Assembly (NCBI GenBank): GCA_013414795.1 | Contig: CP058732.1 | Coordinates: 1,275,950-1,339,949, forward strand | From: Candidatus Kapaibacterium sp. | GTDB taxonomy: Bacteria > Bacteroidota > Ignavibacteria > Kapaibacteriales > UBA2268 | Length of the DNA: 64,000 nt | Reading direction: 5' to 3' | Part shown: positions 35,983 through 37,167 of the stretch, piece after piece | Layout of the letters: the number at the start of each line of letters is the position of its first letter | Numbering within the stretch: the stretch's first letter is position 1 | The notes under the pieces: generated by a model | What the model was told of the DNA's origin: nothing | What the model saw: the letters and a program-made list of their open reading frames with translations, nothing else | Database searches by the model: none | Program-made: the position numbers and the translations under genes

Positions 35983-37167
35983 TTAATAATAAAGATGTAA
36001 TTGAATAGCCCATTGCGAAAAATAACCATCCAAGTGTTCACGGTCGAGTATTCGATATTCAATTAGCAAATCCAAAGATGGAAGAAGAACTATATGCGAA
36101 CCGAAAACCAGATTTGTTGCATAGACAGGATTGTTTTCGTTCTTGTCTTTTAGAATGGAACGTTCAGCCCGAATAAATGGCAAGACGCTTTCGGTCAATT
36201 GATAAGTCAATTCAGTGGTGAACGAAAGAGAAAGCCTTGAATCTTTCTTTTGGGTACGGACATACTCTCCAATAAGCGATACTCTGTCTGGAAATCCAAT
36301 ACCCAAAAATGCACTTGAAATATAATAATCATCGTTTAAGTAAAATGAACCACCAACATAGGAGTTTAATCCTTTAATTATTTCTGGGGGAGAAACCATT
36401 CCTCTGGTAGCAATTCCCCAAGAATTGTCTTTGACAACTGGAACTAATTGTCCAGTTTTGTCTGGTACTTTTAGAATACTCATATTTTTTCCGCTAAAAA
36501 CACCAGCGGATAAACTCAACCAGGAAATACTTTCGTAATCGATTTGAGCGCCCCATTCTGCATAGTCGTCTGGGACAATATAGTGCCTTCCGTAACGTGC
36601 TACCGAGTTGCGAACAAACATAGTATGGTCATCCCATTTTTCACCGATTGGAGGTTGGAAAAATCCAACTCGTAGGGAAGGCAAATTTTCCGAAGGCTTT
36701 AAATACATACTGAATGCATACGGCTGTTGTGCGGGATATCGTTTGTCTTTTTCAAGTTCGTAAGCAATGTTGTAGAAACCTTCGAACATTAACCAACTGG
36801 TTGGTTGAAGAACAAGGTAGGGGGATAGTTGCATTATCATATATTCTCGTTTACTGCTTGTAGGTCCGGATGGCCAACGTGCAGATTGCCAACGAGCATC
36901 GAAACCAATAAGAATTTTGTCATCTAAATAAGAGTTCCTTGCTGTTAGTTTCTCAAAGAAATTTTTCAAACCAATCCATTCTGGTTTGATTAAAGAAATG
37001 TCTTTGCGAGATAACCAACCACCAATCGAACGAACGCCGCCACCTTGAACATTTACGTGGCAAGCACTACATTTAGTGCCGTAAGTTTGTAAAATTGAGT
37101 ATTGGGGGCGAGGCAGAACCTCGCTCCCAATAAATAACAATGCCAGAATAAGTACAACTTTTTTCAT
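35983..37167 (-). CDS. Cyc2-like fused monohaem cytochrome-porin (outer-membrane beta-barrel with N-terminal CxxCH)
   Basis: Signal peptide MKKVVLILALLFIG and a single CSACH about 30 residues into the protein. The remainder shows an alternating amphipathic beta-strand pattern ending in the aromatic terminus ...QLHLYY, typical of OMPs. The ORF call is firm; the Cyc2 assignment is architectural only. Start is at 37167 or 37173. Confidence 0.6.
   Translation of the reverse strand: MKKVVLILALLFIGSEVLPRPQYSILQTYGTKCSACHVNVQGGGVRSIGGWLSRKDISLIKPEWIGLKNFFEKLTARNSYLDDKILIGFDARWQSARWPSGPTSSKREYMIMQLSPYLVLQPTSWLMFEGFYNIAYELEKDKRYPAQQPYAFSMYLKPSENLPSLRVGFFQPPIGEKWDDHTMFVRNSVARYGRHYIVPDDYAEWGAQIDYESISWLSLSAGVFSGKNMSILKVPDKTGQLVPVVKDNSWGIATRGMVSPPEIIKGLNSYVGGSFYLNDDYYISSAFLGIGFPDRVSLIGEYVRTQKKDSRLSLSFTTELTYQLTESVLPFIRAERSILKDKNENNPVYATNLVFGSHIVLLPSLDLLIEYRILDREHLDGYFSQWAIQLHLYY

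Follow-up and report, generated by a model that had tools for sequence, protein, structure and literature searches.

Within a window of 64,000 nucleotides from Candidatus Kapaibacterium sp. (contig CP058732.1, positions 1,275,950 to 1,339,949), six genes lie on the minus strand at spacings of 9–75 bp, and all CxxCH-bearing long open reading frames (ORFs) of this 64-kb window are among them. The gene under study (35983..37167, minus strand) is predicted to encode a monohaem cytochrome c fused to a 16-strand outer-membrane barrel, a protein to which we refer as the haem-porin. It comprises 394 amino acids (aa) from the ATG at 37167, close to the ~395 residues that an earlier note, made from the letters of this DNA, had given for a protein with a signal peptide. 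A second in-frame ATG at 37194 is unlikely to be the true start because it overlaps the preceding gene, and homologues begin at the MKK position. The signal peptide, MKKVVLILALLFIGSEVLP, spans residues 1 to ~19, and its hydrophobic core ends near residue 14. The haem c attachment site CSACH at residues 33–37 (37057..37071, minus strand) is the sole CxxCH of the protein, precisely as the earlier note had it (one motif about 30 residues from the N-terminus and none later), and C33 and C36 are its sole cysteines. Since CSACH lies ~19 residues beyond the hydrophobic core, it belongs to the mature protein, which removes the concern that the motif might be cleaved off with the signal peptide. A second concern, that it might not be conserved in orthologues, was likewise dispelled: C33, C36 and H37 are 100% conserved in 28 close homologues, in 75 broad homologues and in 168 family sequences (down to ~20% identity). 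This invariance, together with the fact that the only two cysteines both lie within the motif, ruled out a chance CxxCH in an ordinary porin. The C-terminus, ...QWAIQLHLYY, reads in translation as the note had said (...WAIQLHLYY). Its last residues, QLHLYY (35986..36003, minus strand), correspond to a terminal strand with an aromatic last residue as in outer-membrane barrels, and in the family Q389 is 98% and H391 95% conserved.

The remainder of the protein had been read in the note as an outer-membrane barrel, and structure prediction agreed with this reading. AlphaFold2, run with a 28-sequence alignment, modelled 16 long strands over residues 85–393 of the haem-porin, the mean predicted local distance difference test score (pLDDT) being 79 and the predicted template-modelling score (pTM) 0.79. 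In a Foldseek comparison with the PDB, the model matched solely 16-strand porins with a probability of 1.00 (OmpU, PorB, BpsOmp38, OprP and OprO), the E-values being 1.6e-11 for OmpU (6ehb) and ~2e-10 for OprP (2o4v) and OprO (4rjw). Judged from this model, the ORF encodes an outer-membrane barrel with one haem fused at the N-terminus. While the predicted fold and strand number are those of general and specific 16-strand porins (OmpU, PorB, OprP/OprO, OmpF), these porins carry no haem, and no relationship between general porins and the family was detectable at the sequence level, either by hhalign against OmpF/OmpC (P 0.026–0.25) or by a family-profile search of PDB sequences. That search, with a 75-sequence profile, returned only weak haem-motif matches and no porin, and the single haem-porin as query found nothing in the PDB.

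The strand number also bears on the possibility that the barrel is a sheath of the MtrB/OmbB type, which would enclose one of the neighbouring multihaem cytochromes as a membrane-spanning chain. Known porin-cytochrome sheaths (MtrB, OmbB) have 20–26 strands and are large haem-free barrels around a separate multihaem cytochrome, whereas the haem-porin is modelled with 16 strands, a porin-sized lumen and a segment resembling an inward-folding loop, and has a haem site of its own. Pfam and NCBIfam scans of the haem-porin gave no match at E ≤ 1 and reported no MtrB-type similarity. Hence, although the barrel gene has multihaem genes to either side, as in clusters of the mtrCAB kind, and Ignavibacteria have been reported with OmbB-like and MtrB-like complexes (PMC7399161), we regard a sheath function as very improbable.

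The earlier note had recognised in this ORF the architecture of Cyc2, and in this respect it was correct. According to the definition of Keffer et al. 2021 (PMC8406198), a Cyc2 is 365 aa or longer and combines a signal peptide and a single CXXCH with a fused 16-strand porin similar to OprO/OprP; the haem-porin has the signal peptide, the single N-terminal CXXCH, a predicted 16-strand OprO/OprP-like porin and, with 394 aa, the length. In addition, these authors described a unique AXPXFAR[Q/K][T/Y] motif before CXXCH and a PXL motif four residues after it, and they dropped sequences without the upstream motif from their tree (PMC8406198). Both motifs are missing from the haem-porin. Ahead of the haem site it has LPRPQYSILQTYGTK-CSACH (region ..LPRPQYSILQTYGTKCSACHVNVQGGG), which retains only P-x-Y-S and lacks R[QK][TY], and the subfamily of the window carries a 2-residue insertion ahead of CxxCH relative to the Cyc2 spacing. 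In place of PXL, CSACH is followed by VNVQGGGVR, the family consensus being xNPxGGGxR.

For comparison, a canonical Cyc2 set was obtained by scanning 185,579 species genomes with the back-translated degenerate motif, which yielded 120 loci and from these 89 complete proteins, all bearing AXPXFAR[Q/K][T/Y]. The loci include Mariprofundus, other Zetaproteobacteria, Sideroxydans, Acidithiobacillus, Nitrospira, Chlorobiaceae, Melioribacteraceae, Ignavibacteriaceae and Kapabacteria. Hidden Markov models (HMMs) were built here from the 89 motif-bearing proteins and from five sub-clusters of them, and are thus distinct from the FeGenie models. With these HMMs, the search that the earlier note had proposed came out negative: the model of all 89 proteins gave the window haem-porin 4.3 bits and the sub-cluster models gave it −2.2 to 4.6 bits, while the best family member reached 32.5 bits and other Cyc2 clusters scored a median of ~50 bits with the same sub-cluster models. 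Comparison of alignments by hhalign, however, connected the family (168 sequences) to canonical Cyc2 (89 sequences) with a probability of 98.7% and an E-value of 2.4e-16 over 357 colinear columns, and did so for the cytochrome segment (1.1e-8) as well as for the barrel (1.2e-9 over 245 columns). Generic beta-barrel similarity might have inflated these values, but this was countered by the negative controls with reversed alignments (P ≥ 0.045) and with Escherichia coli OmpF/OmpC (P 0.026–0.5, with a control profile of two sequences that is weaker than one of the full porin family); cross-comparison of the N-terminal part with the barrel gave P 0.44–0.64. Against single Cyc2 clusters the family was matched with P values of 5e-9 to 3e-6, versus 1e-14 to 1e-30 for one Cyc2 cluster against another. 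Furthermore, bridging sequences were found in P0187, which reads ALPRFALQTGRSCGSCH, and in the soil loci L195–L207, which read ALPRYSARYEQKCALCH: these have the spacing of the Cyc2 motif AxPxFAR[QK][TY]xxxCxxCH, yet retain VNPxGGGxR and QLHxLY. The haem-porin family thus appears from its sequences to be a genuine but remote relative of Cyc2, farther from any Cyc2 cluster than these clusters are from each other, and we prefer to regard it as a sister family inside a Cyc2 superfamily rather than as Cyc2 in the published sense. Of the earlier view that the ORF is a distant Cyc2-type protein, the remote homology is upheld (hhalign E 2.4e-16), whereas strict membership is not, given the absent motifs, HMM scores of at most 4.6 bits and a separate family with its own partner.

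The two groups can be told apart by several features. Cyc2 proteins (A. ferrooxidans Cyc2, Leptospirillum Cyt572 and Mariprofundus Cyc2PV-1; clusters 1–3 of McAllister 2020 / Keffer 2021) are, like the family, ~400 aa long, and share with most family members an A-x-P-x-[FY]-[AS] element ahead of the haem site at identical spacing. The family differs in having neither FAR[Q/K][T/Y] nor PXL, and in possessing the motifs CxxCH-xNxxGGGxR, FPMQ, QPxIGxxxDDHT, PEYR and QLHxFY. Its N-terminal consensus is A-x-P-x-[FYM]-[AS]-L-x-[TS]-G-x-x-CxxCH-x-N-P-x-GGG-x-R-x-E-x-G-W; its barrel consensus comprises R92, M112-Q113 and Q-P-x-I-G-x-x-x-DDHT, and is followed by PEYR near the end and by the C-terminal QLHx[FY]Y. 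The signatures CxxCH-xNxxGGGxR, R92, M112-Q113, QPxxG...DDHT, PEYR and QLHx[FY]Y are all found in the window haem-porin, except for the P of PEYR, which is Ile there, and over 168 sequences they are conserved at 86–100%, except for N39 (71%) and the P of PEYR (82%). A third clade, loci L195–L207 from soil and sediment metagenomes (N-terminus ALPRYSARYEQKCALCHVNPSGGGxR, C-terminus QLHxLY), is intermediate in sequence between the Cyc2 motif and the Rieske-linked family described below, and has YceI nearby in 4 of 14 loci.

A search of 5.8 billion proteins returned 59 relatives of the haem-porin at 35–88% identity, from Ignavibacteria, Kapaibacteria, Bacteroidota and metagenome-assembled genomes (MAGs) of the FCB group, all of them labelled "hypothetical protein". 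A profile search of 1.84 billion cluster representatives extended the family to 387 clusters at E ≤ 1e-3 (131 at E ≤ 1e-30), spanning Kapaibacteriota, Ignavibacteria, Bacteroidota and Myxococcota, again with every database name "hypothetical". The cluster mates of the window haem-porin are named Candidatus Kapaibacteriota, and an identical gene is present on metagenome contig VSSL01001141.1 (locus L128). In the literature on Cyc2 with Rieske or YceI proteins, on porins for extracellular electron transfer in Ignavibacteria and on Kapaibacteria, we found no description of this family.

One signature specific to the family is DDHT at residues 179–182 (36622..36633, minus strand), for which canonical Cyc2 has a gap in the hhalign alignment. 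According to the DSSP strand list of the AlphaFold2 model, DDHT falls in the loop that joins predicted strand 5 to strand 6, i.e. at the position of porin loop L3, the inward-folding constriction loop of porins. D180 is conserved at 99% and T182 at 97% in the family; at position 181, 94% of the sequences have His and the other 6% Met. In the Met clade, the exchange of H181 for Met is usually accompanied by Cys for D179, so that DDHT becomes CDMT (P0115, P0118, P0123, P0125–P0127, P0130, P0134, P0136 and P0144, the exceptions being CDMV in P0130 and PDMT in P0125). Conceivably, residue 181 could act as the distal haem ligand, in which case the His/Met swap may retune the potential of the haem. 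Alternatively, DDH and CDM may form a metal-ion site whose ligand hardness may differ between the clades. M112, which is 98% conserved, is a further candidate for the distal ligand.

The context of the haem-porin gene was compared over 87 related loci, 80 of them from a metagenome scan and 7 others. The six-gene order of the window recurs at 43% identity in locus L123 and in ~20 further non-redundant loci. Neighbours were counted in non-redundant family loci flanked by 1.3 kb or more on each side and, for canonical Cyc2, in all 117 motif-ORF loci with no flank filter; on this basis, a gene for a Rieske protein stands beside the barrel gene in 27 of 38 family loci (71%) as opposed to 3 of 117 canonical Cyc2 loci (2.6%; Fisher P 3e-18), and linkage to YceI also distinguishes the family from canonical Cyc2 (Fisher P 7e-12). 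In the subfamily of the window (20 loci), a homologue of the hexahaem lipoprotein gene is located upstream in 19 loci, Rieske is adjacent in 15 and YceI in none, whereas in the distant subfamily (18 loci, 30–35% identity) the hexahaem gene is upstream in none, Rieske is adjacent in 12 and YceI in 11. At the canonical Cyc2 loci, an upstream hexahaem homologue was not detected and YceI was adjacent in none; the usual neighbours there are dihaem c4-like or 4–5-haem cytochromes. The Rieske linkage extends to Myxococcota members at ~25% identity, and in the Myxococcota locus L126, which belongs to the distant subfamily, the Rieske gene overlaps the barrel gene by 4 bp. Because this linkage is family-wide and the Rieske proteins of all three contexts inspected carry a twin-arginine (TAT) signal and a lipobox, the haem-porin and the Rieske lipoprotein appear to be the conserved functional unit of the family. 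The multihaem conduit would then be an addition in Kapaibacteria and Ignavibacteria.

These linkages bear on the idea that the protein is an ordinary solute porin whose haem serves a non-respiratory role, such as sensing, protection from peroxide or metals, or metal-ion uptake, and whose neighbourhood is coincidental. The fold is indeed that of general and specific diffusion porins, distant members adjoin genes for YceI and small membrane proteins rather than cytochromes, and the replacement of DDHT by CDMT looks like a change in metal-binding chemistry. Nevertheless, the linkage to redox proteins is strong and specific, as the Fisher test for Rieske indicates, the spacing of 13 bp on either side of the barrel gene indicates co-transcription, and in sequence comparisons the family proved related to a known redox enzyme but not to OmpF/OmpC. 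We therefore consider it quite unlikely that the haem-porin is merely a solute porin.

The distant loci show some features of their own. Loci L125, L126, L160, L163, L164, L167, L169–L172, L179, L180 and L190 encode YceI, which has a periplasmic polyisoprenoid/quinone-binding fold, and a small membrane protein of ~87–137 aa, and have no multihaem cytochromes. Some of the YceI loci also encode a low-complexity lipoprotein with planctomycete-type cytochrome domains. A 421-aa monohaem neighbour in distant loci was considered as a second haem-porin and rejected, as it proved to be a low-complexity lipoprotein with C-terminal cytochrome domains to which the family and Cyc2 HMMs gave no significant match.

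In the window itself, the haem-porin gene is preceded by the gene for a 358-aa hexahaem lipoprotein (37181..38257, minus strand; ORF to 38323), whose probable start, ATG 38257, is preceded by GGAGGG. This protein has the lipobox LTIVAC, after whose Cys a collagen-like GPxGPxG linker follows, GPEGPAGPPGKDGKDGEPG, and its haem motifs are five CxxCH and one CAQANCH. The MtrC/MtrF domain PF22113 was scored at 27 bits, which is under the Pfam cut-off. An AlphaFold2 model (pLDDT 86.6) gave OcwA (6i5b) as the sole significant Foldseek match (E 9.4e-6, 21% identity, TM-score 0.48); in the Gram-positive Thermincola potens, OcwA serves as terminal reductase at the cell surface. The family of the hexahaem lipoprotein comprises 859 clusters across the FCB group, all unnamed. 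That it would be a dedicated partner of the haem-porin everywhere was ruled out, since homologues in other phyla occupy unrelated contexts. At locus L210 of a Bacteroidales MAG, two homologues occur with a DUF5777 protein, a cytochrome c, a separate cytochrome b and a NapC/NirT protein, which suggests, from gene content, that the hexahaem lipoprotein has been reused with other partners.

On the other side, 13 bp past the haem-porin stop, starts the gene for a Rieske [2Fe-2S] protein of 166 aa (35469..35969, minus strand; PF00355, E 2.4e-7) with the TAT signal RREFLK, the lipobox LTSC, the cluster-binding motifs CPHQG...CPKH and a weak similarity to AioB. The position of the ORF between a lipoprotein cytochrome and a Rieske gene, as described in the earlier note, was thus confirmed, with the hexahaem lipoprotein upstream and the TAT-lipoprotein Rieske downstream. 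The Rieske gene is followed by that for a small class-I-like monohaem cytochrome c of 132 aa (35033..35431, minus strand) with CNTCH and an N-terminal signal or anchor, for which PF00034 was scored at 20.9 bits, slightly below the cut-off, and whose position is conserved in related loci. Next comes a DmsE/NrfB-like 13-haem cytochrome of 496 aa (33467..34957, minus strand), with 13 CxxCH, Pfam and NCBIfam matches, a signal peptide and a C-terminal transmembrane helix, which is also conserved in related loci. The last gene (31230..33434, minus strand) encodes a 734-aa protein in which a membrane cytochrome b of PhsC/Ni_hydr_CYTB type is fused to an NrfH/NapC-like part, with 7 haem sites (PF01292, E 1e-25; PRK15006, E 2e-49; NrfH, E 1e-11). 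This fusion is the likely link to the quinone pool, and its architecture resembles that of Geobacter CbcL, a quinol-linked inner-membrane cytochrome. Several related loci encode the cytochrome b (250–300 aa) and NrfH/NapC-like halves as separate genes. Within the 75 bp that separate the monohaem c gene from the 13-haem gene, a consensus scan revealed a perfect hairpin of 6 bp, terminator-like and with a T-rich tail on each strand (34990..35007, minus strand). This hairpin may split the cluster into an outer-membrane/periplasm module of the first four genes and an inner-membrane module of the last two; loci L121 and L138 have the first module without the second. A sigma-70 promoter scan gave 33 sites versus 24 expected, an uninformative excess.

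The analysis showed the architecture of the haem-porin, its predicted barrel fold, the invariance of its haem site, its remote homology with Cyc2 and the conserved linkage to Rieske and multihaem genes; where the haem sits, in which order the carriers work, whether the hexahaem protein is at the surface and what the substrate would be are inferred. The haem-porin would be the outer-membrane step of an extracellular electron-transfer conduit, a reading that we favour and hold to be somewhat more probable than not. A single c-type haem on C33/C36, with H37 as the proximal ligand, would be carried by the N-terminal segment of ~60 residues that is fused to the barrel. By analogy with Cyc2, the haem would lie inside the barrel or at its mouth and so allow electrons to cross the outer membrane. 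The outer partner would be the upstream hexahaem lipoprotein, tethered to the cell surface through its long Gly-Pro linker. On the inner side, the TAT-exported Rieske [2Fe-2S] lipoprotein and then the monohaem cytochrome c would act as partners, and the 13-haem cytochrome together with the cytochrome b/NrfH-like fusion would provide the connection to the quinone pool. The cluster logic is similar to that of MtrCAB, MtoAB and Geobacter OmbB-OmaB-OmcB: a multihaem lipoprotein at the surface, a barrel in the outer membrane, multihaem carriers in the periplasm and, in the inner membrane, a cytochrome linked to quinol. Unlike these systems, the haem-porin has a small barrel with a single haem of its own and without decahaem sheathing, and a Rieske protein belongs to the conserved set; homology to the Mtr or Omb porins was not detected.

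Several points weigh against the haem-porin as part of such a conduit. Its haem-bearing N-terminal segment was modelled poorly by AlphaFold2 (pLDDT block means of 39–57 over residues 11–50), so that a haem-in-pore geometry is an assumption. A single haem may be insufficient to span the outer membrane, and contact with the surface hexahaem protein is conjecture. The distant family members have Rieske and YceI and no multihaem genes; the multihaem conduit is therefore not intrinsic to the family. Nor is the hexahaem lipoprotein an obligate partner of the haem-porin, because its homologues are found in many unrelated contexts outside the Rieske-linked family. In the window Rieske protein, the second cluster-binding motif reads CPKHFAEF, without the Ser of CPFHGSQF that is seen in other family loci, and a Rieske centre is, to our knowledge, unusual in extracellular electron-transfer chains. 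Lastly, every family member goes by the name "hypothetical protein" in the databases.

If the haem-porin does serve such a conduit, we lean slightly, and by little, towards an inward flow of electrons drawn from extracellular Fe(II) or reduced minerals over outward respiration, because all characterised relatives of Cyc2 are, as far as we know, oxidases, and because high potentials are usual for Rieske and class-I c proteins. A serious alternative is that the chain respires outward, with Fe(III), Mn(IV) or humics as acceptors. The components resembling OcwA and CbcL point that way, as does the reputation of the sister group, the Ignavibacteriales, which have been described as heterotrophs and Fe(III) reducers (PMC8478452, PMC7399161). 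The operon, with its hexahaem lipoprotein, 13-haem cytochrome and quinol-dehydrogenase-like fusion, fits outward export equally well as Fe(II) oxidation.

Fe(II) oxidation could also be accomplished without a conduit, in the way proposed for Cyc2. Here, the haem-porin would be a stand-alone Fe(II) oxidase: dissolved Fe2+ would enter the pore and be oxidised at the haem, perhaps after binding to DDH, and a terminal oxidase would receive the electrons by way of the Rieske protein in the periplasm and cytochrome c. The multihaem genes would then be accessory or serve reverse electron flow. Cyc2 of Mariprofundus ferrooxydans PV-1 (Cyc2PV-1) does oxidise iron and has a potential of +208 mV (PMC8406198). 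The remote homology and shared 16-strand architecture speak for such an enzyme, as does the core of the wider family, a barrel and a Rieske protein without multihaem genes, which resembles Cyc2 with a soluble periplasmic carrier. The Asp-Asp-His triad at the constriction-loop position could bind Fe2+. In addition, the window contains a gene for an Fe/Mn superoxide dismutase (51924–52649, with ~41 extra N-terminal residues that are possibly an export signal), which suggests that the organism meets oxygen. On the other hand, the motifs that define Cyc2 are missing and the Cyc2 HMMs built here gave no match. Moreover, a surface-type hexahaem lipoprotein precedes the barrel in 19 of 20 subfamily loci and would be needless for a dissolved substrate; a gene survey of the 64-kb window detected neither a terminal oxidase nor a carbon-fixation gene; and the sister group, as stated above, has been described as heterotrophic and Fe(III)-reducing. 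A stand-alone oxidase is accordingly a possibility that we take into account but judge to be rather unlikely.

More speculatively, the haem-porins could represent an unrecognised class of outer-membrane redox proteins, in which a Cyc2-type single-haem pore is combined with a dedicated periplasmic Rieske protein and, in Kapaibacteria and Ignavibacteria, also with an outer OcwA-like hexahaem protein, and in which DDHT/CDMT tunes the substrate. In such a class, DDHT/CDMT may be a tunable distal haem ligand or a site of metal-ion oxidation where hard or soft ligands set the specificity for Fe/Mn versus Cu. This proposal is tentative, and we deem it possible rather than probable. If it were true, fused cytochrome-porins could serve solid or polymeric extracellular redox partners besides dissolved Fe2+.

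When iron oxidation by microbes is inferred from metagenomes, Cyc2 is the main genetic marker. Its sister family described here, with ~390 clusters, escapes the published motif screen and, judging from the HMMs built here, probably Cyc2 HMMs too; surveys may therefore under-count fused cytochrome-porins in the FCB group, Myxococcota and soils, and they may also assign a wrong function to them. The periplasmic partner of Cyc2 itself is still debated, and for the haem-porin family the constant pairing with a Rieske lipoprotein provides a concrete candidate for such a partner. The pairing with a surface-type hexahaem lipoprotein in Kapaibacteria and Ignavibacteria, in turn, calls into question the view that dissolved Fe2+ is all that single-haem porins act on. 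As the haem-porin is small, it should suit the E. coli expression route used for Cyc2PV-1.

Canonical-motif Cyc2 (AIPAFARKY...) was found in Kapabacteria, Melioribacteraceae, Ignavibacteriaceae and several other genomes (taxon checked for part of them), at loci L010, L027, L032, L051, L085, L110 and L120, most of which adjoin a gene for a 440–480-aa cytochrome with 4–5 haems, L032 adjoining one for a 291-aa dihaem protein. Haem-porins of both kinds can thus occur in these lineages. The canonical-motif Cyc2 of Bacteroidota, Ignavibacteria and Kapabacteria (cluster c1, for example L010, L027, L032 and L051) shares with the Rieske-linked family the phylum-level hosts, a similar length (390–400 aa) and an adjoining multihaem gene, but differs from it in the full AIPAFARKY...C..CH....P.L motif, and hhalign connects the two only at P 4e-7. 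The 440–480-aa neighbour with 4–5 haems was, furthermore, not detected with the window hexahaem protein as query. Surveys have reported "Cyc2" in Ignavibacteriales (PMC6344600, PMC8478452), and such reports are probably explained by canonical-motif genes such as those of cluster c1.

Outside the cytochrome cluster, the window encodes four very large secreted proteins of 1268–1978 aa (22260–26543, 38584–43608, 45865–51801 and 59205–63011), and the gene at 38584 is divergent from the cluster. The two that were scanned, 22260–26543 and 38584–43608, have Ig-like/ASH domains and Gly-rich stretches, and the former also has a type IX secretion sorting domain. A spike in GC content at 24–26 kb (0.48) falls inside this same gene. 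Finally, a 343-aa WD40 beta-propeller protein encoded at 14580–15611 gave very strong matches to mostly eukaryotic WD-repeat families.

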